64,000 bases of DNA from Eledone cirrhosa (taxonomy: Eukaryota). The DNA is taken from contig OZ024741.1 in the NCBI GenBank assembly GCA_964016885.1, positions 364,684,001-364,748,000 on the forward strand. Direction: 5' to 3'. Within the stretch, counting starts at the first letter, position 1. The number at the start of each line of letters is the position of its first letter. Below are positions 3,001-62,251 of the stretch, piece by piece. The notes beneath the pieces are model-generated. The model was given only the letters and a program-made list of their open reading frames with translations, was not told the DNA's origin and did no database searches. The translations under genes were made by a program, and so were the position numbers.

Positions 3001-6000
3001 CTATGTAGATAAGGCACTGTGTAGATATGAGATGTGTAGATATGGTACGGTTTAGGTATGACACTGTGTAGATATGATACTATGCAGATATTACACTGTG
3101 TAGATATGACACTGTGGAAATATGACACTGTGTAGTTATGACACTGTGTAGATATGATACGGTGTGGATATGACACTGTAGTTATGACACTGTGTAGATA
3201 TGACACTGTATAGATATGATACTGTAGATATGAAACTGTGTAGATATGACACTGTAGATATGACACTCTGTAGATATGACACTATGCAGTTATGACACTA
3301 TGCAAATATGACACTGTGTAGATATGACACTGTGTAGATATGACACTGTGTAGATATGACACTGTGTAGATATGACACTGTGGAGATATGACACTCTAGA
3401 GATATGACACTGTGTAGATATGACACTATGCTGATATGATACTGTGGAGATATGACACTGGGTAGATATGACACTGTATAGATGTGACACTGTGTAGATA
3501 TGACACTGTAGATATGACACTGTGGAGATATGACACTGTAGATATGACACTGTGTATATATGACACTATGTAGATTAGGCACTGTGTAATATGAGATGTT
3601 TTGATATGATACGGTCTAGGTATGATACTGTGTAGATATGACACTATGTAGATATGACACTGTGTAAATATGACATTGTAGAAATATGACACTGTGTAGA
3701 TATGACACTATGCAGATATGACACTGTGTAGATTTGACACTGTAGACATGATACTGTGTAGATATGACACTATGCAGATATGACACTGTGTAGCTATGAC
3801 ACTGTGGAAACATGACACTGTGTAGATATGACACTATGCAAATATGACACTGTGTAGATATGAAACTATGCAAATATGACACTGTGTAGATATGACACTG
3901 TGGAGATATGAGACTGTGTAGATATGACACTGTGGAGATATGACAGTGTGTAGATATGACACTGATTAGATATGACACTCTGGAGATATGACACTGTGTA
4001 GATATGACACTATGCTGATATGACACTGTGTAGATATGACACTGTAGATATGACACTGTGGAGATATGACACAGTAGATATGACACTGTGTAGATATGAC
4101 ACTATGTAGATAAGGCACTGTGTAGATATGAGATGTGTAGATATGATACGGTCTAGGTATGACACCGTGTAGATATGATACTATGCAAATATGACACTGT
4201 GTAGATATGACACTATGGAAATATGACACTGTGTAGTTATGACACTGTGTAGATATGATACGGTGTGGATATGACACTGTAGTTATGACACTGTGTAGAT
4301 ATGACACTGTGTAGATATGACACTGTAGATATGACAATGTGTAGATATGACACTATGCAGATATGACACTGTGGAGATATGACACTGTGGAGATATGACA
4401 CTGTGGAGATATGACACTGTGTAGATATGACACTGTGGAGATATGACACTGTATAGATATCACACTGAGGAGATATGACACTGTGTAAATATGATACGGT
4501 GTAGATATGACACTGTGTAGATATGACACTTGTAGATTTGACACTGTAGATATGAAACTGTGTAAATATGACATTGTAGATATGACACTGTGTAGATATG
4601 ACACTGTGTAGATATGACACTATGCAGATATAAAACTGTGTAGATAAGACATTGTGGAGATATGACACTGTAGATATGACACTGTGTAGATATGACACTG
4701 TGAAGATATGACACTGTGGAGATATGACAATGTCTAGATATGATACTATGCAGGTATGACACTGTGTAGATATGACACTATGCAGATATGACACTGTGTA
4801 GATATGACATTGTGTAGATATGACACTGTGTAGATATGACACTGTAGATATGACACCGTGTAGATATGACACTATGCAGATATGACACTGTGGAGATATG
4901 ACACTGTGGAGATATGACACTGTGGAGATATGACACTGTGTAGATAAGTCACTGTGGAGATATGACACTTTATAGATATGACAGTGTAGATATGACACTG
5001 TGTAGATATGACACTGTGGAGATATGACAGTTTATAGATATCACACTGAGGAGATATGACACTGTGTAAATATGATACGGTGTAGATATGACACTGTGTA
5101 GATATGACACTTTGTAGATTTGACACTGTAGATATGAAACTGTGTAAATATGACATTGTAGATATGACACTGTGTAGATATGACACTGTGTAGATATGAC
5201 ACTATGCAGATATAAAACTGTGTAGTTATGACACTGTGGAGATATGACACTGTAGATATGACACTGTGTAGATATGACACTGTGAAGATATGACACTGTG
5301 GAGATATGACACTGTCTAGATATGATACTATACAGGTATGACACTGTGTAGATATGACACTATGCAGATATGACACTGTGTAGATATGACATTGTGTAGA
5401 TATGACACTGTGTAGATTTGAGACTGTGTAGATATGACACTGGGTAAATATAACACTGTGTAAATTTGACACTCTTTTGATATGACACTGTCTAGATATG
5501 ACACTGTGTAAATATGACACTGTAGATATAACACTGTGGAGATATGACACCGTGTAGATATGACACTGTGTAGATACGAGACTGTCTAGATATGACACTG
5601 TGTAAATAAGACACTGTAGATATGACACTGTGTAGATATGACACTGTGTAGATATGACACTGTGTAGATATGACACTGTGTAGATATGACACTGTATAGA
5701 TATGACACTGTGTAGATGTTACACGGTGTAGATATGAAACTGTGTAGATATGACACTGTAGATATGACACTGTGTAGACATGACACTATGCAGATATGAC
5801 AACGTGTAGATATGACACTGTGTAGATATGAGACTGTGTAGATATGACACTGTGGACATATGACAGTGTGTAGATATGACACTGTGGAGATATGACAGTG
5901 TGTAGATATGACACAGATTAGATATGACACTCTGGAGATATGACACTGTGTAGATATGACACTATGCTGATATGACACTGTGTAGATATGACACTGTAGA

Positions 6001-9000
6001 TATGACACTGTGGAGATATGACACTAGATATGCCACTGTGTAGATATGACACTATGTAGATAAGGCACTGTGTAGATATGAGATGTGTAGATATGGTAAG
6101 GTTTAGGTATGACACTGTGTAGATATGACACTATGCAGATATGACACTGTGTAGATATGACACTGTGGAGATATGACACTGTGTAGATATACCACTGTGT
6201 AGATTTGACACTGTAGACATGATACTGTGTAGATATGACACTATTCACATATGACACTCTGTAGATATGACACTGTGGAAATATGACACTGTGTAGATAT
6301 GACACTATGCAGGTATGACACTGTGTAGATATGAAACTATGCAAATATGACACTGTGTAGATATGACACTGTGGAGATATGACACTGTGTAGATATGACA
6401 CTGTGGAGATATGACAGTGTGTAGATATGACACTGATTAGATATGACACTCTGGAGATATGACACTGTGTAGATATGACACTATGCTGATATGACACTGT
6501 GTAGATATGACACTGTAGATATGACACTGTGGAGATATGACACTATGTAAATAAGGTACTGTGTAGATATGAGATGTGTAGATATGACACTGTAGATATG
6601 AAACTGTGTAGATATGACACTGTAGATATGACACTGTGTAGATATGACACTATGCAGATATGACACTGTGTAGATATGACACAGTGTAGATATGACACTG
6701 TGTAGATATGACACTGTGTAGATATGACACTGAGGAGATATGACACTCTAGAGATATGACACTGTGTAGGTATGACACTGTGTAGATATGACACTATGCT
6801 GATATGACACTGTGGAGATATGACACTGGGTAGATATGACACTGTATAGATGTGACACTGTGTAGATATGACACTGTAGATATGACACTGTAGATATGAC
6901 ACTGTGTAGATATGACACTATGTAGATTAGGCACTGTGTAATATGAGATGTGTTGATATGATACGGTCTAGGTATGATACTGTGTAGATATGACACTATG
7001 CAGATATGACACTGTGTAAATATGACATTGTAGAAATATGACACTGTGTAGATATGACACTATGCAGATATGACACTGTGTAGATATGACACTGTGGAGA
7101 TATGACACTGTGTAGATATACCACTGTGTAGATTTGACACTGTAGACATGATACTGTGTAGATATGACACTATGCAGATATGACACTGTGTAGATATGAC
7201 ACTGTGGAAATATGACACTGTGTAGATATGACACTATGCAGGTATGACACTGTGTAGATATGAAACTATGCAAATATGACACTGTGTAGATATGACACTG
7301 TGGAGATATGACACTGTGTAGATATGACACTGTGGAGATATGACAGTGTGTAGATATGACCCTGATTAGATATGACACTCTGGAGATATGACACTGTGTA
7401 GATATGACACTATGCTGATATGACACTGTGTAGATATGACACTGTAGATATGACACTGTGGAGATATGACACTGTAGATATGACACTGTGTAATATGACA
7501 CTATGTAGATAAGGCACTGTGTAGATATGAGATGTGTAGATATGATACGGTCTAGGTATGACACCGTGTAGATATGATACTATGCAGATATGACACTGTG
7601 TAGATATGACACTGTGGAAATACAACACTGTGTAGTTATGACACTGTGTACATATGATACGGTGTGGATATGACACTGTATTTATGACACTGTGTAGATA
7701 TGACACTCTGTAGATATGACACTGTAGATATGACACTGTGTAGATATGACACTATGCAGATATGACACTGTGGAGATATGACACTGTGGAGATATGACAC
7801 TGTGGAGATATGACACTGTGTAGATATGACACTGTGGAGATATGACACTGTATAGATATGACAGTGTAGATATGACACTGTGTAGATATGACACTGTGGA
7901 GATATGACAGTGTATAGATATCACACTGAGGAGATATGACACTGTGTAAATATGATACGGTGTAGATATGACACTGTGTAGATATGACACTTTGCAGATT
8001 TGACACTGTAGATATGAAACTGTGTAAATATGACATTGTAGATATGACACTGTGTAGATATGACACTGTGTAGATATGACACTGTGGAGATATGACACTA
8101 GATATGCCACTGTGTAGATATGACACTATGTAGATAAGGCACTGTGTAGATATGAGATGTGTAGATATGGTACGGTTTAGGTATGACACTGTGTAGATAT
8201 GATACTATGCAGATATGACACTGTGTAGATATGACACTGTGGAAAAATGACACTGTGTAGTTATGACACTGTGTAGATATGACACTGTGTAGATATGACA
8301 CTGTGTAGATATGATACGTGTAGATATGACACTGTAGCTATGACACTGTGTAGATATGACACGATGCAGATATGACACTGTGAAGATATGACTATGTGGA
8401 AATATGACACTGTGTAGATATGAGACTATGCAGGTATGACACTGTGTATATATGATACTATGCAGATATGACACTGTGTAGATATGGCACTATGCAGATA
8501 CGACACTGTGTAGATATGACATTGTGTAAATATGACACTGTGTCGATATGACAATGTGTAGATATGACACTGTAGATTTGACACTGTGTAGATATGACAC
8601 TGTGTAAATATGACACTGTGTAGATATGACAATGTGGAGATATGACACTGTAGAAATGTCACTGTGTAGATATGACACTGTGTAGATATGACACTGTGGA
8701 AATATGACACTGTAGATATGACACTGTGGATATATGAAACTGTGTAGATATGACACTGTGTAGATATGACACTGTCTAGATATGACACTGTGTAGATATG
8801 ACACTGTGTAGATATGACACTGTGTAGATATGACACTGTCTAGATATGACACTGTGTAGATATGACACTGTGTAGATATGACACTGTGGAGATATGACAC
8901 TGTGTAGATATGTCACTGTGTAGATATGATACTGTGTAGATATGACACTGTGGAAATATGACACTGTAGATATGACACTGTGGAGATATGAAACTGTGTA

Positions 9001-9002
9001 GA
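1..9002. repeat. Tandem satellite, 16-bp monomer AGATATGACACTGTGT (14-bp deletion variants common), with higher-order duplications; runs off the left edge
   Basis: The monomer is visible continuously. Near-identical ORF-track peptides recur at offsets 535 (ends 612 vs 1147), 2119 (1463 vs 3582) and 2654 (410 vs 3064). The array ends abruptly at about 9002. Confidence 0.97.
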
Positions 9003-22125: not shown

Positions 22126-22275
22126 GTTTTCTTTATCAACTACAAGGTTGGCATAAAGTATAACATTAAGGACAGCACAGGACAATACAGGACGGTACAA
22201 ATGGGCATTTCTGCGTGTAAAAAAAAAATTATATGTATAAAAAACGAAACAAGAAAAAATTCCCCAATAGGGGCT
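22126..22275 (-). mobile_element. Tx1-type LINE, 3'UTR-only copy between AAT tracts
   Basis: Matches the 3'UTRs at 22339-22490 and 23391-23540. Confidence 0.88.
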
Positions 22276-22282
22276 AATGATG

Positions 22283-22338
<56 letters not shown>

Positions 22339-22339
<1 letters not shown>

Positions 22340-23339
22340 TTTTCTTTATTAACCACAAGGGTTTACATAAAGTAGACATTAAGGACAGTACAGGACAATA
22401 CAGGACGGTACAAATGGGCATTTCTGCGTGTAAAAAACAAAAACAGAGGATGTAACAAAAAAATAACAATGAAAAATTCCCCAATACGGGGGGAGACTTC
22501 CGAGGGACATTCGTGGAGAAAGACCATTAAAAAGCCACAGTGACCCTGACCACCAGGGCAAGTGCCCTCTCCCAGTTTTCCACCTTTAATTTACAGACAT
22601 ATACTCAGAGTAGGCCCATTCACTCGGACCATTCTTGCCTCTCTCACCCATCTTTCAACAAAATGCTGGGAAGAGAGCACTTCCCTTTCTACCCTGATTT
22701 TCCTTTTCAAATGAAATTTGAAAAAGTTAATCAGGGCATCATCGAAGAGGTAAGTGCTCGTCTTCAGCCCTTTCAAACGTGTCCACCATACTATCTCTTT
22801 CGCCATGGCCTACAGACAGATAAAAACTGCCTGCCCTTCCCGGCTAAAAGAAGAGGGCGGGGCAATCCTGACGATGGACTCAGCTGATAGCTGGATCCGT
22901 CCTACACGCGACAGCAGGTGTTCGACATGAACCCACAAGTCAGCAATGCTCAGACACTGGACGAGTGCATGAAGGACGGTTTCGTCGCCCTGCACGCATC
23001 TCGGACGTGCCCGGCTGACGGCACCTCAATGCCTGTAGAATTTATCCCGAACTGGCAAGCTCCTCGGTAGCACTGCCAGGCCAGGTATTTCTGGAAGTTG
23101 TCCATAGGCCCCGGACCGAAAGTCTTCCGAAGAGATTGGCTAGTTGATTTACGTCGACGCCTAGAGTTTTCTCAAGTACGTCGTCGCTCTTCCCCTCCAC
23201 TAATCCTCTATAGAAAGCCAAGGCGGAGTTTCCACCGATCACATTGCCCGATTGGTCGAGGGCTGTGAGCGCCTGAAGACATTCCAGTCTCCAAGCGCTC
23301 CCTCTCGGTCTTCGCTTGACCCAGGACTGCAGCTCCGTC

Positions 23340-23340
<1 letters not shown>
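22339..23340 (-). mobile_element. 5'-truncated Tx1-type LINE (ORF2 C-terminal Zn-finger region plus 3'UTR)
   Basis: Closely similar to 23391-24390; stop codon at 22591; (AAT)n on both sides. Confidence 0.93.
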
Positions 23341-23392
<52 letters not shown>

Positions 23393-23640
23393 TTTCTTTA
23401 TTAACCACAAGGGTTTACATAAAGTAGACATTAAGGACAGTGCAGGACAATACAGGACGGTACAAATGGGCATTTCTGCGTGTAAAAAACAAAAACAGAG
23501 GATGTAACAAAAAAAAAAAATGAAAAATTCCCCAATAGGGGGGAGACTTCGGAGAGACATTTGTGGAGAAAGCCCAGTAAAAGGCCACAGTGACCCTGAC
23601 CACCAAGGCAAGTGCTCTCTCCCAGTTTTCCACTTTTAAT

Positions 23641-26600
23641 TTACAGATACGTACTCAGAGTAGGTCCATTCACTCGGGCCATTCTTGCTTCTCTCACCCA
23701 TCTTTCAACAAAATGCTGGGAAGAGAGCACTTCCCTCTCTACTCTGATTTTCCTTTTCAAATGAAATTTGAAAAAGTCAATCAGGGTATCACCGAAGAGG
23801 TAAGTGCTCGTCTTCAGCCCTTTCAAATGTGTCCACCATACTATCTCTTTCGCCATGGCCACCAGACAGATAAAAATTACCTGCCCTTCCCGGCTAAAGG
23901 AAGAGGGCGGAGCAATCCTCACGATGGACTCAGATTATAGCCGGATCCGTCCTACACGCGACAGCAGGTGTTCGACATAAACCCACAAGTCAGCAATTTT
24001 CGGACACTGGACGAGTGCGTGCAGGATGGTTTCGTCGCCCTGCGCGCATCTCGGACATTCCCGGCTGACGGCACCTCCATGCCTGTAGAGTTTATCCCGA
24101 ACTGGCAAGGCTCCTCGGTAGCACTGCCAGGCCAGAGATTTCTGGAAGTTGTCCATAGGTCCCGGCCCAAAGTTCTTCCGAAGAGATTGGCTAGTTGATT
24201 TTCGTCGACGCCTAGAGTTTCCCCAAGTACGTCGTCGCTCTTCCCCTCCACTAATCCTCTATAGAAAGCCAAGGTGGAGTTTCCACCGATCACATTGCCC
24301 GATTGGTCGAGGGCTGTGAGCGCCTGAAGACATTCCAGTCTCCAAGCGCTCCCTCTCGGTCTTCGCTTGACCCAGGACTGCAGCTCCATCAAGGAAACGA
24401 GCTGGGGAAATACGTGTCTAGCAAACGGCGACCACACCTGATCACCGTCGAGGAAGAGGTGGAGATGTCGTAGCCTGAGTGGGTGTCTTCGCATCATCAG
24501 CCACGGCATTCCCAGCCCTCTACGGAGCGGGTGTTGACAGCAGATGGACCTCCTGACCATCGGAGCGCGTCCCTTCCACAAAAAGCGAAAGAGCAAACGC
24601 TCCAACGCAGTCAGGCGGGGCTTAGGACAAGGTACGACGGTCAGGCGGTAGCAGGTGACAGACGCGATGTACGCGTTAGCCACCTCCGCTCGACCTTTCA
24701 GGGATAGCTTCCTCTCCGCCCATTTCTGGGTGAGAGAAGCCACCCTGCTCGTCACCTCGTCCCAGTTTTTGTCCGAGCTGCAGGCCCCTGACTTTTCCTA
24801 GTTGATCATTGCTCCTGTCACCGCTTCGTATTCTCTTAGTGTAGTGCCGATCGCCTCGATGTGTTTGGCGTTCGACACCACTACGGTGACATCGTCCGCA
24901 TATGCTGACACGGATCTTCCGCATCCTAGTTCGCGCGGGACGCCCCTCAACGTCTCCAGTCTGTGCAGTAATGGCTCGAGAGTCAATACGTACAAGAGGG
25001 ACGAGAGGGAACATCCTTGGCGGACCGAGCGCATGATGTTGAACGGTTCCGAAAGGTGACCGTTCACTCTCACCACAGAGCAGATATCGCTGTGCATGGC
25101 AGCGATCCAGCCTCTGAAGACGGGCCCAAAGCCAGCCGCCCTCAGGACTGCCGCTAGGTAACGATGGTCGACCCTATCGAAAGCTTTCGACTGATATAAA
25201 TTGATCAAGGACCCACCCGTGCCAGGTTCCCTAGCTACCCTCTCTACGATGTATCGCATGAGGTGGAGGTTGTCGTGGATGGATCTGTCGGGAATGGCGC
25301 ATGTCTGCGCCTCTCCCACCAGACCACCAACGACAAGCGCCAACCTCTTTGCTAGCACCTTGGCCAAAATCTTGAACTCTGTGTTTAGCAGAGTTATGGG
25401 CCTGAAATTATCTATGTTATCCCCCTTGTTCGGATCCTTTCTCAACAGTGCCACCGCTCCTCGGCTCACAGAACTGGGAATTCTCCCGTTCTGTTGCCAG
25501 TTGCAGTAGACGTCCACCAAGAGGCCTCCGAACAAGTCTGGCATCTGTACGTAAAGTTCATAGGGCAGACCATCCAAACCAGGCGATTTACCCCTTGCGC
25601 AGCCAATCATTGCCTCCCGTATTCAGCGGCTGTTATCGGCTTTTCACAACACTCCACCTCAGTGGCCGAGAGCCAAGGCAGTCCGTCGAGGTAGACACTA
25701 AAGTCCATCGCTCGACCCGGCCTACCGCTGCCCCCGAACAGCTGAGCGAAGTGTCGCTGAAAAGCTTCACACATTTGACCGGGATCGAGTAGCATGCGCC
25801 CGTCGTGGTCCACCAAAGACCAGATCGTGGCTTTGTTGCCACGACGCGCCTCCGCCACTGGGGCCCATTGAACGGCTCTCGTCCCCTCGTGTCTGAGAGC
25901 ACGCACCCTAGCTCTGACAACGCAGCCTTCGTGCTTTGCATTGAAGAATTAGTCAAGGGCCAATTTCGCCGCAAGCACGTCGGTCGCGATGCCTTTGCTA
26001 AGCGCCTCGTCTAATTTTCTAACTAGTTCTCCCTCTGCTCTATTTTTCTCTATTGCTAAAGCCTTACTAAACCTAATGGATTCTATTCTAATCGCTCTTT
26101 TCAGAGCAAACCACCACTTGTTGTTGACAATGGCCCCCGTCAACGCCCGCTTAACTAGTTCGCTAATCCGGTCTCTGTAGGGCTTGCGCGCTGGTAAGGA
26201 CGCGTTTAGCTTCCAGTAGCCGGGTCCTCGTCTATGAAGCCTATCTAAGTCAAGCACACAGATCACGAATTTGTGGTCCGTGTAGCTGACTATCTTGAAT
26301 TGTGGACAGCCTATGCTAGACCTATCTATTCCCCTACAAAATACTCTATCTAGATATGATCTGGATGACCCTATACGATTTGTCCAAGTCCACATTGGCA
26401 CATTCGGGAAATCCAATCGGTACCTGTCAGACAGTTCAAAACGCCTGAGCAGGTTGGTGAGGCTCTTGCACCCTCCACCCTATCCGCTAATCCCACACAG
26501 TCCCAGCGTGCATCTAAGATCCCGTTCCAGTCGCCCACTAATACTAAAGAGCCTGACGTTCCAAGAAAGGTCTCCAGACGCCGGAAAAAATCAGGCCGCC

Positions 26601-26952
26601 CTGCTCCTGTCGGGGCATAGACGGCCACTAGCCTGAAAGCTTGCCCGTCTCCGCTGGTCACGTCCAGCACCACCAACTTACCCTCTGGGTCCAGGAAGAT
26701 GGCCCGTATGGCGAGATCCAAACCTCTCCGAAAAAGCACAGCAACTCCTCCTCCCGATCCAGGATGGCTGGGAGATGCGTACACATCGTAGCCGCCGAAG
26801 ATCGGTGCGAAGGCCCGTGCTTCGGAGATTCTGGTCTCGCTGATGGCCACTACATCTATGTTTAGTGACCTGAGGTCGTTGAGCAGCTGACCCTGCTTCC
26901 ATGACGACCCCAAGCCACGCGCATTTATGCTGCCTCTTCTGAGTGAGGTCAT
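23641..26952 (-). pseudogene. Tx1 ORF2 (AP endonuclease, reverse transcriptase, C-terminal Zn finger), frameshifted
   Basis: GSINARGL, ISETR, VGDWN, SYLDR, YTDHK (APE); SPGLDGLP, NFRPITLLN, SKAFDRVDH, RQGCSLS, AYADDV (RT); ECPRC..ETILHALVQC. Split over several ORFs. Confidence 0.93.
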
Positions 26953-26954
26953 GT

Positions 26955-29128
26955 TTAAAATAGAGTTGAAAAGATGGGAAAGACCACTTACCGTACTTTT
27001 CGTAGAGGAAGGATGGTTTCTCCATCCATTTACACTTGATCGTCTGGTGAAGGGACCGTTGAATCGTCCCTTCGGCTGGTCGTCGGACTTCTATGAGTAT
27101 GTCCGAATATACTCTTCGGTTGAGAGTCCCTCCTAGGCCTCTGAAATCACCAACTACGTTGGGGAATTTCGTTTTAATGTTTGTGTATTGTTTCTGTGCT
27201 ATTTTTAGCAGCCTTATGTTCGTTGGCGTTTTGATTGGTGCTGGTATTATGTAGTCGTGCTGTGAAATGTCTGTGTGTTCAATTATATAAGTCATTAGTT
27301 TCTTGTTGTGTGTTTTTATTGCCGTGCATTTGTTTTTATGGGGGTGGGGTGTGGTTCTGCTATTTTCTTGTCGTTGTTGCTGGGTGTGTGTGTTTTGTTG
27401 TGTTTGCGATGTTGGTGTTTGTGGTGTTGAAGGTGTTGTTGTTGTTGGCGGTAGGGTTGCCGCCGGTGGTGATGGTGGTGCTAGTGTGGGTGGTGATGGT
27501 GTTGGTGGTGTTGCTGCTGTGAGTCTCTTTGCAGTAGCTTTTACCCATTTTCATTTCTTTCCTCTCTTTTCGAAGGCGACGATGCGCTGCTTCTGCGTTT
27601 GTGCCTTCTTACGACCTTTTGCCATCCCTCTCCCACCTCACACTCCATGGCTGATTCTGTGAGGTCGGGGAGGGGTACCAGCTCCACTCTTTCATTTGTT
27701 GTTGTTGGTGATGTTTGCAGTGGAGTCTCTGTTGCAGCTGCATTTGGTATTACTGTTGTTGTTAATACTTCCACTGCTGCTGCTGTTCTTGATTTTCTTG
27801 ATTTGCGTGGGTATGGGTGCCACGGACCTATCGTTCCTGGTTGCCGCTTGTCCTGTTGCTGGTAGCCGTGGAGCCGGTTTCGGAGGGAGGGGATTCTTCT
27901 CCTTTCTCAGGGTCTTCTCGTTGCAGAAGGCCCTGAGGTGAGTCTTCGATCCACAGCGAAAACATTTCGGGCGTTTGCCCTCAACACTTATGGGCAGTTG
28001 AGTGCCGTTATCGAAGTCTATCACATCCGGGATAGCTTCGATGCACTCCTGGTTGGTTTGGATTAACATCTCAATGGAGGTGCCGACCCAATCTTCTCTT
28101 ACTTTTTTCTGTACTTGCAGTACAGTTGTTTTGCCCTCGATTCCGACGAGGACAGACGCGGCCAGCCAAGAAGGGGCCATCCGGGGGGGGGGGGGGCGGG
28201 GACGGGGACATGGGTCAGTTTGACCCTCACAATTTTTTTCCCGCAGTAGGAGGGCACCAACACCATTTCCTCGCTCCTTAGGGTCACTAAGGATTGAGCC
28301 TTTGCCTCCTGGGGTGTGGCAAAAAGCACGTCTACGGTGGCATATTTCTTGCCTCGGGTGATGTGCGTTTTCCGCTACCACACAGACCCTAAGGCTTTTT
28401 GTATTTGAGCCTCTGTGGCTCTTTCAACCCTACGTGATTTTGTGCTAACGGTACGTGACCGTACAGTGCTGTTGGGTTTCGAAAATTTTTTCGGCTGCCT
28501 TGCAGATTGCTCGGTGTCCGGATTTCGTCACCATCTTCTTCGCTTCCTCTAATTCCTCATTTGTTATGAGGATGGTTTCCAGGTTCTTTGCGATACCTGC
28601 AAACGAGATTGCTTTTTCTTTGCTGCTGTTGTTGTTGTTGTCGTCAGAGCTGCTGTTACTTTTGTTGTTGCTGCAGGTACTACGACTACTGCCGCCGCCG
28701 CTGTTGCTGTGGTTGTTGTTGTTGTTGCTGCTGCTGCTGTTGTTGTTGCTGTTGCTGCTAATGCTGTTGTTGTTTATGCTGCTGCTGATGCTGTTGCGGC
28801 TGCTACTGTTGTTTTCCTTGTCACTGTTGCTGCTGCTGCTGTTATTACGGCTGCTACTGCTATTATTCCTGACGTCAGACGAATGAAATGGGTTTTCGTA
28901 TTTCCCGCACACCTTTTTCGTCGTTGTCGTCGTCGTGGTGGAGAAATCTTGCACGCTTTGCACGTGATTTTTCTTTTCTGGCGTCGCTTGCGAAAGAGAA
29001 GGGAGGGAGAGAGACACATTTAGAGAAGAGAGGGAGAGAGACAATCTTCTCTCTGCTGTAGTGACGATTGAGGAAGAAGAAGACGGAATGAGTGGGAGTG
29101 ACCTATGAAAATTCTTTTTCGTAGCCAT
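26955..29128 (-). pseudogene. Tx1 ORF1 (gag-like, CCHC zinc knuckle), frameshifted, with Ser/Asn/Thr low-complexity tracts
   Basis: ATG at 29128 (MATKKNF); CFRCGSKTHLRAFC at about 27923-27964; lies upstream of ORF2; the 3' end is approximate. Confidence 0.8.
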
Positions 29129-29387
29129 GTTTTTTTTTCGTTTAAAATAAATATTGGGCACAAAACCCCAATAAGCGGTTATTTAACCCCGAAGGGCCAA
29201 ATAACGGGCAGAAAGACCCCTCTCACGAGGAGGAGTGTGTTTTTGTCTACAATTTGGTTAAAGTTTTAAACAATTTACAATTGTTATAGCGGTCAAAATT
29301 TACAATACCTTACAGAGCCGAGCCTCCGTCAACCATATTCAATAATAATAATAATAATAATGATAATAATAATAATAATAATAATAA

Positions 29388-37850: not shown

Positions 37851-39589
37851 AGAATTAGTTTGTACTTATAACAGTTGTACAATCCAAACAAAATATAAAT
37901 ACTAGTGCCATTTAATTTTAACGATCATCTATGCAAATATCCCAAATTTAACAACCTGAAGTTTAGAAAAGTAATACTTGGTAAACAATAAAATGTTTTT
38001 GTATCACAAGAATAAAAATACTTGGTCCTCATTGTATTTTTAATGGTAAATCCATCCGAATAAATCTTTAAGATTTCTCTATCAGATGAGATACTTTTGT
38101 GGCATAGATACTTCTGAAATATTTTCACTCATATTTCAAAACTTTATTTAACACTCTTCAAAACCTTTATCTCTTAACAATATTACAAATGCTCCTCTAA
38201 TATTGGTATCACTGATCCGAGGAACATATTTCTAAAGTATTTGAATTTAGTTTGCGGTTTATTCATTGTTTTAACAAAGTGAAACGAAATTAGATCATGA
38301 TTACGAAGCAAACTTCTTATCCCCCCCCCCCACGCTTACGTATATGTCCATAAAAAATAAATACCAGCACAAACAACAACAAATTATTCTGCATTCTAAG
38401 AGGATCCGGGAAAACCGTCACCACTGTTGTTCTGTTGAGAGAAGTGAATATAAATATCATTGTATGGCATCTTTATGCATACATCTGTAACATCATACAG
38501 GTACAGTGATTACAGACAGTTCACTTAGTTGAAAATGAAATTAGAGGCAGCTGGAGGTTAGCGCTGCGACAGCCTGACATCCTGTTTAGACTGGAGTCTT
38601 GTACCCTCGATCATTTAAAGCATATGAAATCGGAATACGCTCCGGGTTTCGTTTAGCCCATGCAAAGCATGTAAAGATGGGCGTAAAATGATATCTCTAA
38701 CTGTAATTCTAAAGTGTACGAAGCCTGTTTGCTATAGACAAGTGGAAAGATTTAACTTTACGGGTTGTACTCTTCGACGAAGAGCAGTATTTTCCTGATG
38801 CTACCAAATAAATAGATATATCTATTTGATAACTCGCTTTTTCCGACAAAGGTTACTTACCGAAATATTAGATTTTCCCTTGCGGTAAACCAAATTATTC
38901 TACATTTGAAGTGCAATACACACTAATTGCCGATGCAGACAAACACCAATTTCCTGGGATCTGACTGTTTGCCGTAATAATTATAGTTCGCTTTCAATAT
39001 TTTCTGAAAATAAAACTGAAAGAAAGCCTGTACATTAATTATTGCTACTGTGATCTAGCGGAATAATACAAACAGCAAATGCAAACGGAGGAAATTGCTA
39101 TATATTGTCATAGCTATACCAGAAGAGATTATTATTACCGTAACTCAAATTATAAACACCAGTGCAACTAAACGTATGAGTTGAATCAGTATTAATATTC
39201 ATTCTATAGAAAGGTCAACGAAGAACCGTCGAACATGGATAAAAAGAAGGAATATTGTGTTACTAAATATTATTACCATTCATATTTCAATGACAAGCAG
39301 TAATTTCTATAGGAAAATGTGGCTAGCAAAACAAACAAGGAATATTGATGGGAAAATAACAACAGTAACATTATTCTAGAATATACAGAGTTAATAATAA
39401 ATAGGCCCCCTTCTGTCATGACTGACCATAGGTTTGACCATGGAAAGTTTCTCTCCAGAGCGCATGCCCGGACAGGATGATTTGTGGTCTCCCCTTACCA
39501 TGCTATTGATGTGGTCCAAAGGGAAGGTAAAGGTCGATACAAGTGTATTTGCAGGTGAACGACTCCTCGGTGGGCGTGATATTAGACTG

Positions 39590-39765
39590 TATCACAGTTA
39601 ACCACCAGCTGGTAATGGTACTTATTTTTTCTCCAGATGAGTGAATTGGAACAACGTGAAATAAAATGTCTTGGTCAAGGGCACAACGCACAGCACGGTC
39701 CAAGAATTGAACTCACGATCGGAAGATCGTGATTGCAACACCCTAACCACTAATCCATGCGGTGC
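39590..39765 (-). mobile_element. SINE S2 head fragment
   Basis: CACCCTAACCACTAATCCATGCG is the reverse complement of the S2 head. Confidence 0.65.
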
Positions 39766-39886
39766 TTTTACAGATTAAGTAAGACACATGTAATAATGTA
39801 ATGATAAACAATGGTCATTGTTGGGATGATTTTGATCATAACATCATCGAAAAAGGAAGGACACATTGGAAATTGTTTATCCTGGA

Positions 39887-39887
<1 letters not shown>

Positions 39888-39955
<68 letters not shown>
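39888..39955. repeat. (CTAT)n tract at the 5' side of the Tx1 array
   Basis: Direct inspection; further tracts at 42150-42200, 42232-42328, 46006-46024 and 47346-47403. Confidence 0.97.
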
Positions 39956-39956
<1 letters not shown>

Positions 39957-42149
39957 GTGAGGAAGGACGAGAACAAAGGGGACGATATAAATAATTTCAG
40001 GTCCATAACTCTGCTAAATACAGAGGTACAGATTTTGGCCAAGGTGCTAGCAAAGAGGTTGGCGCTTGTCGTGGGCAACCTGGTGGGAGATGCGCAGACA
40101 TGTGCTATCCCGTCCAGGTCCATCCACGATAACCTCCACCTCATGCGATACATCATAGAGAGGGTTGGGAACGAACCCGGCTTTGGTGGGGCCCTGATCA
40201 ACTTGGATCAATCTAAGGCATTCGATAGGGTCGACCATGGTTACCTGGATGCGGTGCTAGCGGCGGCAGGCTTCGGACCCGTTTTCAGGGGCTGGATCAA
40301 TGCCATGCACAGCAGCCGCATCTGCTCTAGGGTCAAGGTGAACGGCTACCTCTCGGAGCCGTTCGAAATCGCGCGGTCCATCCGACAGGGGTGCCCTCTC
40401 TCCTCCCTTCTGTATGTAGTGACTCTAGAGCCACTGCTGCGGAAGTTGGAGTTGTTGCAGGGCATCCCGTTGGAACCGGGATTGCGGAAAGCGGTGTCAG
40501 CCTACGCCGATGACGTAACAGTAATGGTGTCGACGGCCTCGGAAATCGGGGCGATCGGCACCTTACTGGAGGAGTACGAAAAGTTTACAGGGGCTAAGCT
40601 GAACTGGGACAAGTCGATCGGTCTACAACTCGGCACGTGGAGGGGCAGATAGATGCCCTCCGATGGCGTCGTCGGGCGCTGGACGGAGGGCCCGGTGAAA
40701 TTGCTCGGGGTCTGGTTCGGACCAGACCTCCAGGTGGAGAAGAACTGGGGTGAGGTGACGAGCAGGGTGTTTGCACTGACTCAGAAGTGGGCCGAGTGCA
40801 AACTATCCCTGAAAGGTCGGGCGGAGGTGGCGAACACCTATATAGCGTCCGTCATCTACTACCGCCTGACCGTGGTGCCTTGCCCAAGGGAAACGCTCGC
40901 CAAAATGGAGCGCGCACTCTTCCAATTCCTTTGGAAGAGGCGGGCTCCTATGGTGAGGAGATCCATCTGCTGTCAACACCCTTCGAAAGGAGGGCTGGGG
41001 ATGCCGTGGCTGATGATACGTAAACACGCATTAAGGCTACGGCACCTTCAGGTATTCCTCTCCGGTCAACCGGTGTGGGCCCCGTTTGTGAGGCGAGCCT
41101 TTCCAAGACTCGTCTCACTCACCGAGCTGCAATCCTGGGTCAAGCAAAGACCGAGAAAACTGGGCGCCTGGCACACCGAGTGTGCCCAGGCGCTCACGGC
41201 TCTCTGGCAGGCGGACCCGGCTGTCAGTGGAGAATCCACCTCGTCATTCTATAGAGGGCTGGTGGTTAACAGGTGCGACGACGCCCTCGGAGAAGCCCTA
41301 GGCATGGAGGAAGACGAACTGGCCAACCTGTTCGGTAGGACATTCAGCCCGGGACCCATGGATAACTTCCAGAGGTCCCTGGCCTGGCAATGCTACAGAA
41401 GGGCTCTGCCCGTTCGAGAAAGGCTCTACAGACACGGGCGCCCGGGTAGGGACCCATCGAAAAAGGTCTGTCCCAGATGCGTCTGCGACGAGGAAACCGT
41501 TGCACACGCATTGGTACACTGCTCGGGCATTGCCGATCTGTGGGGCTATGTCGAACAACTGCTGTCAAGGGTGGGACCGATCCGGTTGACCACCGAGTCT
41601 ATTGTAACGATCAAGCCGCCTCCCCTCTTCAAAAACGAAGGAGAGGCGGTGTTTCTGTGCGTAATAGCCATGGCGAAAGAGGTTGTATGGTGGACGCGTC
41701 TGAAAGGACTGAGGTCAGACACCTTTCTCTCTGGCCAACAACTGGTCCGTTTCTTCCGATATCATTTCGGAAGAAGGATCAGGATGGAGAGAGAGGTGCT
41801 GCACCCCAGCCGTTTCTATGAAAGATGGGTGAAAGTGGCGAGAATGGCCCGTGTGAATGGGCCTTCACTCTACATCAGACTATAGGTGAGGAAGATGAAA
41901 GACCAAGGGAGCACCCCTTCTCTGTGCTCCTGAGGAGAAGAGTTGCACACTTTTTTCGGGGGTGTGTGCGACCCCCCAAGGCGCCTCCTCTCTATTGAGG
42001 ACTTTGTTATAAATTTTATTTTTTGTTATATTTTATTTTATTTTTATATATTGTTATTGCCTCCTCCTTATTGAGGACGCCTTGTTTTGTAAACTCCCCC
42101 CTTTGTACTTGTCCCACTTTTGATGCCCTGGTGGCAAATAAAAGAAACA
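39956..42149 (+). mobile_element. 5'-truncated Tx1 LINE, (CTAT)n lineage copy 1 (RT, Zn finger, 3'UTR)
   Basis: NFRSITLLN, QSKAFDRVDH, RQGCPLS, AYADDV, VCPRC..ETVAH; in-frame stop at 40650; ORF ends 41885. Confidence 0.95.
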
Positions 42150-42200
<51 letters not shown>

Positions 42201-42204
42201 ATAT

Positions 42205-42230
42205 AATGCCTTTATGGTAAATAAAGAAAT
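42205..42230 (+). mobile_element. About 25-bp 3'-terminal Tx1 remnant between CTAT tracts
   Basis: ATGCCTTTATGGTAAATAAAGAAAT versus the terminus TGCCCTTGTGGCTAATAAAGAAAT. Confidence 0.7.
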
Positions 42231-42231
42231 A

Positions 42232-42328
<97 letters not shown>

Positions 42329-42329
<1 letters not shown>

Positions 42330-45300
42330 ATGGAAATCGTGCAGCCTGGTCCCCAGGAGACGAAGAGGTGAGTGATTTCTTTTCCTCTTCTTTTAACTTT
42401 TCAGCACCAACATGGCCAATATAAGAATTGGATGTGTGAATGTACGCGGCCTGTGGATGCCCTGAAACAGGGAAAACTCTTAAACGACCTCAGGTCGCAC
42501 AGTATGGATTTAGTAGCCATTTACGAGTCCAGGATCCACAGCGAGCGACAACTGGCTCCCTTCTTCGACAACTTTGAGATTTACGCATCTCTCTGTCAGC
42601 CGGTTGGTGGAGGCGGGGTTGCCGTTTTGCTGCGGAAACACCTGGACCTCGTAACACAGACGGTACATCTGGACCCGGAGGGTCGACTGGTAGTACTAGA
42701 CGTTGACGGGGTAGTAAAGGTGGAACCTTCAGGCTGGTGACCGCATATGCTCCATCCGGGACACCGCGTCCAGACTTCTTCAAACGTCTAGAGACTTTTC
42801 TGGTAACGTCCCGCTCCCTGCTGTTAGTGGGGGACTGGAATAGAATCCTAGAGGCACGTTGAGACTATGTGGGAGCATGTCCCGATAGAGGGGGGGGGGG
42901 TGTGTGTAACAGCCTCAAACAGTTAATCGGCCGATTTGACTTGGTCGATAGATATCGACTAGATTTTCCGACTGTGCCACTGTGGACGTGGATTAATCGT
43001 AGCGGAACATCTAGATCGTACCTAGACAGGGTTCTTGTTAGAAAGAAGGATAGGGACATATTAAGCTGTCCACAAATGTTCATGGTTGACTATTCAGATC
43101 ACAAATTAGTGACCTGCTTAGTCAACCTTGACAAAACCCATAGACAGGGACCCGGCTACTGGAAGCTGAACTTGTCGTTACCGAGATGCAAAGCCTACAG
43201 TAGACGGATTAGCACCTTAGTTAAGCAGCACTTGACGGGGGCCATTGTCAACAACAGTTGGTGGTACTCTCTCAAGAGGGAAGTTAGATTAGACTCGATA
43301 GGTTTTAGTAAAGAATTAGTGTTAGATAGAAATAAGACCGAAAAGGAACTGGTAGATAAAGTAGAAGAGGCACTTAGGAGTGGCAACGTAACCAGCGTGC
43401 TAGCAACGAGAACGGCCTTGGACCAGTTCTTCGACGCAAAGCATGAAGGCTGCGTTGTCAGAAGCAAAATACGTGCTCTGGGAAACGAGGGAGCCAAAGC
43501 TGTTAGCTGGGCCCGAGTGACGGAGGCGAAAAGTGGCAACAGGTTCACGATTCGGTCTTTGAAGGACCAAGAAGGACGCGTGATACTTGAACCGAAGCAA
43601 ATGTGCGCGGCCTTTCAGCGGCACTTTGCTCAACTGTTCGGTCAGGGCGGCGCACCGGGAGGGGCTATGGATTTCGGTTCATACCTCGATGGCCTACCGC
43701 GACTCGCGGACAGCGAGGCGAAGTTCTGCGAAAGGCCAATTTTGGCCGCTGAGATAGGGGACGCGCTGAGCCAATGTGGCAAACGCAAATCTTCAGGTCT
43801 CGACGGTCTACCCTACGAATTTTACGTAGCAATGCCGGACTTATTTTCCGGTCTCCTGGAAGCGGTCTACTGCAACTGGCAGCAGAACGGGAGAATTCCC
43901 AGTTCTGTGACCAAGGGCGTAATCACGTTAGTCAGGAAGGACGAGAACAAGGGGGATGACATAGGCAACTTCCTGCCCATAACTCTGCTCAACACAGAGT
44001 TACAGATTTTGGCCAAGGTGTTGGCAAAGAGGCTGGCGCTTGTCGTCGAAAACCTGGTGGGAGAAGCGCAGACATGTGCAATCCCGACCAGGTCCATACA
44101 CGACAACCTCCACCTCATGCGATACATCATAGAGAGGGTAGGGTGTAAACCCGGCTTCGGTGGGGCCCTGATCAACTTGGATCAGTCTAAGGCTTTCGAT
44201 AGGGTTGACCATCGTTACCTGGATGCGGTGCTCGAGGTGGCAGGCTTCGGTCCCGTGTTCAGGGGCTGGATTGCTGCAATGCACAACAGCAATATCTTCT
44301 CAAGGGTCAAGGTGAACGGCTACCTCTCGGAGCCGTTCCATATCACGCGATCCATCCGATAGGGATGCCCTCTCTCCTCCCTTCTGTACATACTGACTCT
44401 CGAGCCACTACTGCGGAAGTTGGAGCTATTGCAGGGCATCCCTTTGGAACCGGGACTGCGAAAAGCGGCGTCGGCCTACGCCGACGACGTGACAGTAATG
44501 GTGTCGAGCACCTCGCAAATCAGGGAGGTCGGAACATTACTGGAGGAATACGAAAGGTTCACAGGAGTGAAGCTGAACCGGGACAAATCTGTCGGTTTGC
44601 AACTCGGAACGTGGAGAGGCAAACCGATGCCTTCCGATGACGTCGTCGGACGATCGACGGAAGGACCGGTAAAGCTGCTCGGGGTCTGGTTTGGCCCTGA
44701 CCTCCAGGTGGAGAAGAACTCGAACGAGGTGACGGCCAAGGTATTTGCGCTCACCCAGAAGTGGGCCGAGTGCAAACTATTCTTGAAAGGTTGAGCGGAG
44801 GTGGCGAACACTTTTATAGCGTCCGTCATCTACTACCGCTTGACCGTTGTGCCTTATCCAGCCAAAACGCTCACCAAAATGGAGCGCGCGCTCTTCCAAT
44901 TCCTTTGGAAGAAACGGGCTCCTTTGGTGAGAAGATCTATCTGCTGCCAACACCCTTCAAACGGAGGGCTGGGGATGCCGTGGCTGACGATGCGCTCAGG
45001 CTGCGGCAACTCCACGTATTCCTCACCAGACAACCGGTGTGGGCCCCGTTCGATTGGCACATCGAATGTGCTCAGGCGCTCACAGTCCTCTGGAAAACGG
45101 ACCCGGCGATCAGTGGAGACTCCACTTCGACATTCTATAGAGGGTTGGTTCGCAGCAAGTGCGGCGACACGCTCGGAGAAACTCTGGGCGTAGAGGAGGA
45201 CGAACTGGCCAGTCTGTTCGGTAGGACCTTCCGCCCGGGACCAGTGAACAACTTCCAAAAGGACCTGGCCTGGCAGTGCTACCGAGGAGCTCTACCAGTT

Positions 45301-46005
45301 CGAGACAAGCTCTACAGACACGGACACCCAGGTAGGGACCCTTCGAAAAAGATCTGTCCGAGATGCGTGCGCGACGAGGAAACCGTTGCACACGCATTTG
45401 TACACTGCCCGGGCGTTACCGACCTGTGGGGCTATGTAGAACGACTATTGTCGCGGGTGGGACCAATCCAGTTGACCACCGAGTCCATTGTCATGATCAA
45501 ACCGCCACCCTCCTTCAAAAACGAGGGAGAGACGGTTTTCCTATGTGTTATGGCTATGGTGAAAGAGGTTATATGGTGGACGAGGTTAAAAGGGCTGAGG
45601 TCAGACACCATTCTCCCCGGCGAGCAACTGACTCGTTTTATAAAATATCATTTTGGAAGAAGAATCAGGATGGAGAGAGAGGTGGTGCTGTACCCCAGCA
45701 GATTTTATAAAAGGTGGGTGAATGTGGCAAAGATGGCCCGAGTGGTTGGGCCTTCTATCTATATAAGCCTGTAGGTTGAGGAAAAAAAGGAAGAGAGGAA
45801 TGGAGTACTCACTCTTGGTGCTCCTGGAGATGAGCGTTGTACATTTTTTCGGGGTGTGTACAACCCCTGTGTAACACCTCCCCATATTGGCGATTTCAAT
45901 TGTTATTTGTTATTGTATTAATAGTTTTATTTTCATATACCTGTATGTAAACTCCCCATTTGTATTTGTCCCCTTCTTTTGTGCCCTTGTGGCTAATAAA
46001 GAAAT
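42329..46005 (+). mobile_element. Tx1 LINE, (CTAT)n lineage copy 2, with a complete but disrupted ORF2 (42412-45774)
   Basis: MANIRIGCVNVRGL, VGDWN, SYLDR, YSDHK, RT motifs and Zn finger; several stops and frameshifts. Confidence 0.95.
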
Positions 46006-46024
46006 TTATCTATCTATCTATCTA

Positions 46025-47345
46025 TGGGCAGAGTGCAAACTATCCTTGAAAGGTCGAGCGGAGGTGGCGAACACTTTCATAGCTTCCGTCATCTACTACC
46101 GCTTGACCGTCGTGCCTTGTACCCGTGAACACCTCACCAAGATGGAACGCATGCTCTTCCAGTTCCTTTGGAAGAAGCAGGCTCCACTGGTGAGGAGATC
46201 CGTCTGCTGTCAGCACCCTTCCAACGGAGGGCTGGGAATGCCGTGGCTGATGATGCGCAAGCATGCGCTGAGGCTACGCCATCTACAGGTATTCCTCACC
46301 GACCCCCAACCGGTGTGGGCACCGTTTGTGAGACAAGCCTTCCCGCAACTTGTCCCGCTGACGGAGCTGCAGTCCCGGGTCAAGCGAAGACCGAAGAAGA
46401 TGGGCGCCTGGCACATTGAATGCGCTCAGGCGCTCACAGTCCCCTGTCAAGCGGGCACGGCAATCAGTGGATACTCCACTTCGACATTCTATAGAGGGTT
46501 AGTACGTCACAAGTGCGACGACGTGCTCGGAGAGACTCTAGGCGTCGAAGACGACGAACTCATCAGTCTGTTTAGTAGGACTTTCCGCTCGGGACCCATG
46601 GACAATTCCAGAGGTCCCTGGCCTGACAATGCTACCGAGGAGCTCTACCAGTTCGTGATAAGATCTACAGGCACGGACGCCCCGGCAGGGATCCTTCCAA
46701 GAGGATATGTCCAAGATGCGCACAGGACATTGAAACCGTCCAGTACGCAATTGTACATTGCCCGGGCGCAACCCACCCGTGGAACTACGCGGAACAACTG
46801 CTGTCGCGTATGGGACAAATCCAGTTGACTGCCGAGTCCATAGTAAGGATCAAAACGCCAGCCTCTTTCAAAAACGAAAGACAGGTGGTTTTCCTCTGTA
46901 CAGTGGCTATGGTGAAAGAGGTTATATGGTGGACGAGATTGAGAGGACTGAGGACAGATGCCTTTCTCTCCGGACAACAATGATTCCATTCTTTAGATAC
47001 CACTTTAGAAGGAGAATCAGAATGGAGAAAGAGGCACTGCACCCAGTAAATTTATTGAAAGGTGGGTGACTGTGGCAAAAATGGCCCGAGTGATTGGGCC
47101 TTCTCTGTATATAAACCTGTAGGTTGAAGAAGAGATCAAAAAGAAGAAAGAAACACGCTGCTGAAGTTGAGGGTTGTTCTATCGACGGGGTATTAAACAA
47201 CCCATTTGTGGCACCTCCTCCCTATTGGAGATTTCGATTGTTATAATTGTTTGTTTTATATTTTTTTACACGACTGTATGTAAAATCCCCGGCATGTCTT
47301 TGTTTTGTCCCCTTTTCTTGTGTGCCCTTGTGGCTAATAAAGAAT
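46025..47345 (+). mobile_element. 5'-truncated Tx1 LINE, (CTAT)n lineage copy 3
   Basis: Begins WAECKLSLKGRAEV; ORF2 stop at about 47120; distinct 3'UTR; (CTAT)n tail. Confidence 0.93.
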
Positions 47346-47406
<61 letters not shown>

Positions 47407-48361
47407 TTTCTCCTTTCCTTTCATCCTCTGTTTTTCTAGCTCTCTATTCTCTAATTAAATCACTAAGCCTCTCATCTTTGTTTTCTTTTTTCCCTTCCTC
47501 ACAAACAATCTGCTTTTCCTTCATACAATCTTAATTGTTCTCCATACATCTTACTATCTTTCACTACTATCTTGATGAAATATCCTTATCTTTCATTAGA
47601 ATTCATTAATTAGATTATATATTTCCTTCCAATCTCCTCCATTCGTTCCCTTGTTTTAGATTGATTAATTGTCCAGTGTACTGAACAGAGTACAGTAATT
47701 TCACAATTACGTGAAATTTGTTAATGCGGATAAATCAATTTTACTTTATGTTCGTCTTTTATAATCGATCCTTTTAGTTCAGATGATATTGCTACGGATT
47801 TTAGTAATCTGATTTCAGTTTCGAAGGAATAATCACGTAAATTCATATTAGACATAGGAGTCCTTTTTCTCTTTTTTCTAGTCCGGTATTTCCCAAAGGA
47901 GATTAAGATATATATACATATATATAGGAAACAGTACATCTATCTACTTAATCTGGGATGGACACACGTGGGAAACTTGCTGGGTAAGTTCTGCTTAAAT
48001 TTCTATAGAAATTCTTGACTGTGAGCCTTCATTTTTATACCAATTTGTAGAGGGACTGCCAGGTCAAATTTTGATCTGGTCAGTCTCTGGGAGTTCTCTG
48101 GGAGAAACATGTGTAAGAGCTATAAAGATATGTTTTAAGATATACTTGAAACTCTTTCATTCACTCATTCATTTGCTTATTCCAGCTCTGCTTAATCCTT
48201 ACGCTAAATATTAACTTTCTCTAATATTTAACCCTAATAACCCAAGCATCGAGCACACTACGCTTCGGCTTTTGACATTTAGTATTCTGTATCGCATCTC
48301 TTTGTATCTCTCTGTTCCATACGATACTTTAATCCTATTATTATTATTATTATTATTATTT

Positions 48362-58797: not shown

Positions 58798-58979
<182 letters not shown>

Positions 58980-62174: not shown

Positions 62175-62251
<77 letters not shown>

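Follow-up and report, generated by a model that had tools for sequence, protein, structure and literature searches.

A likely Tx1-clade LINE lineage targets short TATC runs and probably built a stack of four insertions in one microsatellite

The window analyzed here, a 64,000-nucleotide stretch of contig OZ024741.1, contains a stack of four pieces of long interspersed nuclear elements (LINEs), all on the forward strand and lying between five (TATC)n tracts (Table 1). The pieces, of ~2.19 kb, 24-26 bp, 3.68 kb and ~1.32 kb, have unequal 5′ truncation points, and all four end in AATAAA(A)GAA(A/T) followed by two bases. The long pieces encode a reverse transcriptase (RT) and a C-terminal zinc-binding region, and all four are defective. 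Each piece belongs to a different subfamily (A, D, B and C; the labels A-E, T and U are names coined in this analysis for subfamilies and families), and for this reason the stack is not regarded as a tandem duplication. The long copies 1, 3 and 4 are 77-85% identical to each other, and the 3′ untranslated regions (UTRs) of their families are 57-70% identical. A sequence-only reading of this DNA had described four co-oriented copies with CTAT repeats on both sides and differing truncation points and had argued against a tandem duplication; both statements were confirmed.

Copy 1 carries one in-frame stop (40650-40652) and shares a 3-nt microhomology with tract 1 at its 5′ end; its identity was 98.2% to a full-length A copy and 99-100% to its nearest kin (3′ 548 nt). 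Copy 3 is disrupted by frameshifts, stops and a ~76-nt deletion near 45051, with 93-94% identity to a full-length B copy. Copy 4 showed the greatest divergence of the four, being 91.5% identical to the longest C copy, which served as the reference. The 25-bp piece recognized in the earlier reading proved to be real, as 24 of 24 bases of copy 2 were identical to the 3′ end of subfamily D, and this 24-mer occurred 1,540 times in the genome (3.0 Gb, to which all genome-wide counts refer) with 0 occurrences of the reversed control. Copy 2 is either an extreme truncation or a deletion remnant. It is not unique, since short copies with 3′ ends 83-151 bp apart were present elsewhere in the genome-wide 3′-end listing.

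Table 1. Coordinates of the LINE copies and repeat tracts in the window
Feature	Position	Strand	Description
(TATC)n tract 1	39887..39956	+	perfect, 70 nt; upstream of copy 1, so it cannot be a tail
Copy 1, subfamily A	39954..42149	+	RT, C-terminal CCHC region and 3′ UTR; 5′-truncated within RT
(TATC)n tract 2	42150..42200	+	perfect, 51 nt
Copy 2, subfamily D	42206..42231	+	final 24 nt plus 2-nt end
(TATC)n tract 3	42232..42329	+	perfect, 98 nt
Copy 3, subfamily B	42330..46006	+	end of ORF1, whole ORF2 (endonuclease, RT, CCHC) and 3′ UTR
(TATC)n tract 4	46007..46025	+	perfect, 19 nt; about the length of one target-site duplication
Copy 4, subfamily C	46024..47347	+	frameshifted; 5′-truncated downstream of RT
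(TATC)n tract 5	47348..47405	+	perfect, 58 nt
Family T stack	22128..29337	-	one near-full-length copy with ORF1 and two truncated copies; (ATT)n tracts between
(ATT)n tracts of the family T stack	23340-23390, 22275-22338, 29341-29387		the first two separate the copies; the third is also present
ORF, open reading frame.

The repeats beside these copies were found to be the target of insertion rather than a tail. The general 3′ end of the elements is AATAAA(A)GAAA plus two subfamily-typical bases without poly(A). Of the 69 A copies sampled, 67 ended in CA; most B copies ended in TT or TG, and C and D copies in TA or TC. Genome-wide 3′ ends were counted by exact patterns, using an A probe plus a degenerate probe for B/C/D/E, and the reversed-pattern controls gave 0. 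The 3′-end probe suggested in the sequence-only reading fits the B and C types only. Two bases and then TATCT followed 14,177 of the 16,709 ends (85%), namely 1,314/1,548 of the A ends and 12,863/15,161 of the B/C/D/E-type ends. These counts could reflect a tail, and therefore the 5′ junctions were read. For A, 39 best hits and 30 copies taken in order of position were sampled out of 1,548; B and C contributed 31 and 29 best hits, respectively, from 39 listed for each; and D contributed 30 of its 1,540 copies, namely the first ones on the largest contig. De-duplication removed only L272 and L162; with one duplicate A site removed and 31 copies having no 5′ junction in the fetched DNA or the reference, 127 copies remained, 102 of them 5′-truncated. 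In 99 of these 127 A-D copies (78%; 75/102 truncated and 24/25 full-length), the 30 nt preceding the 5′ junction contained TATCT, compared with 352 of 8,112 background windows of 30 nt (4.3%) drawn from the window and from flanks of T-family copies (122.7 kb in all; p ~1e-78). The pattern expected of a tail, with CTAT at the 3′ side only and random 5′ flanks, was thus not that of most copies. On both sides the share of flanks with the TATCT core exceeds the >20% repeat-flank threshold of PMC4494074 (here and below, cited papers stand for those parts of them that were available).

Target-site duplications of at least 10 nt that were not pure repeat were present in 36 of the 127 copies, with a length of 10-34 nt (median 16.5). 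In this anchored search the informative duplications start directly after the terminal dinucleotide. Across the 36 sites, the duplicated bases at positions +1 to +5 were T (36), A (36), T (36), C (33, with A in 3) and T (36), and the bases at -1 to -4 were C in 29, T in 30, A in 24 and T in 31. The TATC period reaches position -8 upstream of the cut, with matches at -8 to -1 in 23-32 of the 36 sites. In an unanchored search, 24/127 copies had duplications that departed from the repeat at three or more positions, against 4/376 in the mismatched-pair control; 18 of the 24 begin 0-2 nt past the GAAA element end, and the other six begin 8-55 nt beyond it, chiefly where the flank is low-complexity or minisatellite sequence. 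Since the duplications begin at the element end, insertion normally adds no repeat tail, and the repeats on the 3′ side are part of the target. The 5′ junctions, the duplications and the position of tract 1 together support the reading of the repeat as target and not tail, as had been proposed from the sequence.

The number of perfect TATC units across the cut was 0-1 in 14 of the 36 sites, 2-3 in 13, and four or more in 9, and the median tract over the 99 motif junctions was 16 nt upstream and 12 nt downstream. TATC occurred in the 30 nt upstream of 28/36 cut sites and of 124/454 background TATCT sites (p 2e-9), which showed that an isolated TATCT is disfavored. The target is a strict five-nucleotide TATCT core in a loosely periodic, short and often imperfect TATC run, and a long microsatellite is not required. 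The proposal of (CTAT)n targeting was therefore right about the repeat being the target, but it overstated the need for a microsatellite, given the sites with at most one perfect unit. The dinucleotide repeats (TA)n and (TC)n are occasional off-targets, (TC)n following 3 of the 159 sampled A-D 3′ ends. One A copy (L009) lies within a ~36-bp minisatellite whose unit includes the TATCT core. In the window, two long (CTAT)n tracts (58821-58932 and 62178-62249) have no adjoining LINE match and represent unoccupied targets.

Several observations weigh against this interpretation. The A, B and C samples consist mostly of best hits and are non-random. TATCT was absent from 28 of the 127 5′ junctions, of which 10 had element-like or repeat sequence upstream and 18 had neither, and ~15% of the 3′ ends were followed by something else, which was (TA)n or (TC)n in the samples. 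The invariance of positions +1 to +5 is partly built in by the fixed start of the anchored search, and the informative duplications are biased toward short or imperfect tracts. For the copies in this window, the duplications consist of pure repeat and are not delimitable. When four public runs were compared with 38700-48300, repeat copies swamped the alignment; none of the joints listed crossed the stack, and an orthologous empty site was not seen. Both stack flanks were identical to one public sample, and the contigs of that sample end at the tracts. In public data under a second organism label, the right flank showed 35 differences and 11 gaps over ~470 nt, and these data contained much element sequence.

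Judged by its ORF2 domains, its closer match to L1, and the occurrence of both 5′ truncation and target-site duplications, the lineage classifies as an apurinic/apyrimidinic endonuclease (APE)-type LINE of the L1/Tx1 group. Full-length copies measure 5.7-5.9 kb. ORF1 is 582 aa long in A and ~640 aa in D and has one CCHC knuckle; its zf-CCHC matches (E 0.0099 in A and 0.32 in D) were both short of the cut-off, and the domain scan of these two ORF1 proteins gave no Transposase_22 or RRM match. A Type I ORF1, with RRM and/or zf-CCHC and not Transposase_22, is reported to be consistent with Tx1 (PMC5203782). ORF2, of ~1,145 aa, contains the APE endonuclease, RT and zf-RVT, and in the proteins P0001 and P0327 matches were obtained to Exo_endo_phos, RVT_1 and zf-RVT, the last slightly short of its cut-off. 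The best solved-structure match was human L1 ORF2p (PDB 8sxt and others; E 5e-46, residues 12-863, endonuclease and RT), while the R2 structure matched over the RT only (E 3e-20) in this PDB search, in which few clades have solved structures. On the basis of its architecture and this L1-group best match, the lineage is likely a member of the Tx1 clade. The nearest named protein relatives were from Argonauta hians (66%) and Acanthosepion pharaonis (52%), and the homolog searches, the cluster look-up and an Atlas search otherwise returned domain-level names only; no protein named Tx1 appeared in the homolog searches or the cluster look-up.

Median identity to the family reference was 98.6% for A best hits, 96.8% for A copies taken by position, 98.0% for D, 95.0% for B and 91.1% for C, and both frames were open in two (L237 and L242) of the 20 long D loci. 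A splice-donor-like GGTRAGT was observed at the ORF1/ORF2 boundary (window ~42365-42375) in the A, B and T reference copies; the pattern was not found in the D reference copy.

Families T and U are the sister families of this lineage and are associated with (ATT)n; the T stack in the window repeats the architecture of the TATC stack with a different microsatellite. The 3′ ends of T were followed by two bases and then ATTAT in 26/30 cases, informative duplications were found in 5/29, and the motif was present at 11 of 29 5′ junctions, with 13 of the 29 confounded by element-like or repeated upstream sequence. T copies (such as L092, L097, L102, L103 and L107) are often next to a recurring short repeat ending in ATT runs, probably a short interspersed nuclear element (SINE) whose tail would supply targets. 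Family U had an open 1,150-aa ORF2 in 39 of 40 matches and 99.1-99.8% protein identity among the 29 copies fetched (L282-L310), and (ATT)n followed 28/28 clustered 3′ ends; from these sequences, U is very young and probably active. Some U copies stand in tandem with a spacing of 5.84 kb. The RT region of U was 78-82% identical to the TATC families and 79% to T, and its endonuclease and C-terminus were closer to T; these regional affinities would reflect uneven rates or an ancient recombination event.

In DNA trees made for each of four ORF2 regions, the TATC families were separated from the ATT families with 100% bootstrap, the TATC families forming one clade. In a protein tree built quickly with 20 relatives from databases, T branched first, then U, and then the TATC clade (SH-aLRT 87-94, 99 and 100). 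The TATC clade was thus nested among the ATT families, which makes ATT the likelier ancestral target. The four regional trees gave the same split, and the idea that recombination had exchanged endonucleases between ATT and TATC families therefore found no support. On the TATC stem, 16 of 232 endonuclease positions changed, compared with 25 of 908 positions elsewhere (p 0.005), and five other branch tests gave ratios of 0.5-2.2 (p at least 0.10). One of these changes, I to S at residue 202 of P0001, falls at the tip of the hairpin aligned with L1 T192-S202, a hairpin loop that has been linked to target selectivity (PMC1950540). The endonuclease DNA of the TATC families was 65-72% identical to that of the ATT families. 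From these data we give about even chances to a scenario in which an octopod Tx1-like radiation switched from (ATT)n to (TATC)n by altering a few endonuclease residues, for which there are 16 candidates, including one at the betaB5-betaB6 hairpin-loop tip, with intact, very young elements of both specificities coexisting in one genome. Three points count against it: the rooted tree is the quick one, with outgroup targets not established; the stem test is one of six (~0.03 when corrected) and used one copy per family; and the A+D stem showed a similar endonuclease ratio (2.2) that was not significant (p 0.10).

Endonuclease-led targeting, with four separate insertions by four subfamilies into TATC runs, is in our view the probable origin of the stack, and we hold it with good confidence. 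Target-primed reverse transcription is established for this LINE group. In such a mechanism the endonuclease would likely nick the GATA strand of TATC runs, and the duplications place the putative first nick on the bottom strand, at 5′-AGATA^G-3′ or one base rightward. The freed 3′ end would prime reverse transcription, plausibly aided by base-pairing to a short stretch of UAUC at the end of the RNA, like the poly(A)/T-tract pairing in L1, and the second nick would fall 10-21 nt downstream. Poly(A) or an extra repeat tail would normally not be added. Each insertion would duplicate ~16 bases of target and leave repeats on both sides for the next one, and since such a target is itself oriented, copies that share a tract would all be co-oriented. 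The lineage itself likely arose from (ATT)n-targeting relatives via endonuclease changes.

Stacking was frequent in the genome. Among 158 A-D copies, a relative lay within 220 nt downstream in the same orientation in 48 cases and in the opposite orientation in 1, and the 3′ end of a relative stood just upstream in 31/127. Stacks of mixed subfamilies were common genome-wide, and many spacers were about as long as one duplication, as with the 19-nt tract between copies 3 and 4. The idea of separate insertions that renew their own target, first put forward from the sequence, agrees with these co-oriented neighbors as well as with the 5′ junctions and duplications. Divergence suggests that age rises from left to right in this stack and that newcomers landed upstream, with copy 4 probably the oldest, followed by copy 3 and then by copies 2 and 1. 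Across loci, such polarity was not significant for A (21/68 downstream vs 9/49 upstream, p 0.14) or for C (3/29 downstream vs 6/25 upstream, p 0.27), the two sides being detected by different methods. A 136-bp remnant of a 5′ end (47953-48088, +) with 89% identity to subfamily A was also observed; it is co-oriented with the stack, the rest of the element is gone, and a short imperfect TATC run lies before it. Elsewhere in the window, positions 1-9002 are occupied by a satellite with a 16-bp unit (~573 copies, 82% matches).

Other origins of the pattern were weighed. Specificity could be led by the RNA, with readthrough transcripts carrying repeats and priming only at nicks that pair with UAUCU, while the nuclease itself is loose. 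Consistent with this, the strict core is just five bases at the primer end, and no poly(A) is inserted despite an AATAAA only 5-8 nt ahead of the element end, so that the RNA plausibly carries repeats; furthermore, a correlation is known between the 3′ repeats of LINEs and SINEs and the base at which the duplication starts (PMC13295347). However, the TATC period is enriched on the upstream side of the cut (-8 to -1), with which the RNA is unable to pair and where its bases are subfamily-specific mismatches, and off-target sites retained their own base at +2 or +4. The excess of endonuclease changes on the TATC stem and the sequence specificity of the Tx1L endonuclease in vitro (PMC1950540) also speak against RNA-led priming, which we consider unlikely. 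In another explanation, insertion is random, the (TATC)n is a tail that belongs to the elements, and the stacks result from later slippage, recombination or survival in repeat-rich regions. The 18 5′ junctions with neither motif nor element-like sequence upstream and the six displaced unanchored duplications would fit this, but it is already largely refuted by the motif at 74% of the truncated 5′ junctions against the 4.3% background, by unique-sequence duplications that start at the element end with no extra repeats, and by tract 1 upstream of the first copy, and we regard it as very improbable. An origin of the stack by tandem duplication or by misassembly has a next to negligible probability, since the pieces match four subfamilies at 98, 100, 93 and 92% and each other at 77-85%, mixed stacks are common and both flanks are identical to one public sample, even though public contigs do not span the tracts, leaving the stack junctions without read confirmation, and same-family tandems with ~5.8 kb spacing exist elsewhere. 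Taken jointly, tail, duplication and artifact retain a slim chance.

Microsatellite-targeting Tx1 LINEs are already known, and the principle is not new. What is added here is a target not found in print, the large scale, and a cut site readable within one or two bases. A TATC/GATA-targeting LINE was not found in the literature searched; Repbase, Dfam and Kojima and Fujiwara 2004 were outside this comparison, and a prior description is possible. In Octopus vulgaris, 80 L1-Tx1 families, 13 of them recently active, have been reported in a paper whose main text does not contain the word “target” (PMC13282606), and some of these families, known to us by description only, may be those studied here. 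The way in which an APE endonuclease acquires or shifts its sequence preference is an open question, and loop grafts on L1 altered nicking just partly (PMC1950540). The natural ATT/TATC pair, with its level of endonuclease identity, makes swap and point-mutant tests direct. Both groups include copies with open reading frames (L237 and L242 in D, and 39/40 matches in U). That a LINE end stands beside many of the GATA tracts of this genome is relevant to microsatellite markers and repeat annotation.

Dong belongs to the Dong-R4 clade, and Waldo and Mino belong to R1. These elements target the microsatellites (TAA)n, ACAY and AC, respectively (PMC3812793), and Togen, which is related to NeSL, targets (TG)n (PMC4640811). 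The (TAA)n repeat of Dong is also what the sister families T and U probably target, but all four elements fall in other clades, whereas the element described here has an L1-like ORF2. Compared with human L1 ORF2p, the catalytic endonuclease motifs align, and a short core target and duplications of 10-20 nt are shared; the present elements differ in that their ORF1 carries a CCHC knuckle in place of Transposase_22, in lacking a poly(A) tail, and in targeting TATCT rather than TTTT/AA. Closer to the present case, Kibi on (TC)n and Koshi on (TTC)n are microsatellite-specific LINEs of the Tx1 clade in teleosts (PMC4494074, PMC3812793). Like them, this lineage is an APE-type LINE inserting specifically in a microsatellite, but its target is TATC/GATA and its host is likely an octopod; with the core TATCT in place of (TC)n or (TTC)n it is neither Kibi nor Koshi, a distinction drawn by target and not by tree. 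In crocodilians, Tx1 families insert into (TTCC)n/(TTTC)n, and tandem SINEU-3 copies arose by sequential insertion around the target-site duplication (PMC4494074). The crocodilian families share the Tx1 clade and the preference for tetranucleotide repeats with the lineage described here, which differs from them in its repeat unit, in comprising at least five subfamilies with >16,000 counted 3′ ends, and in having an (ATT)n sister group.

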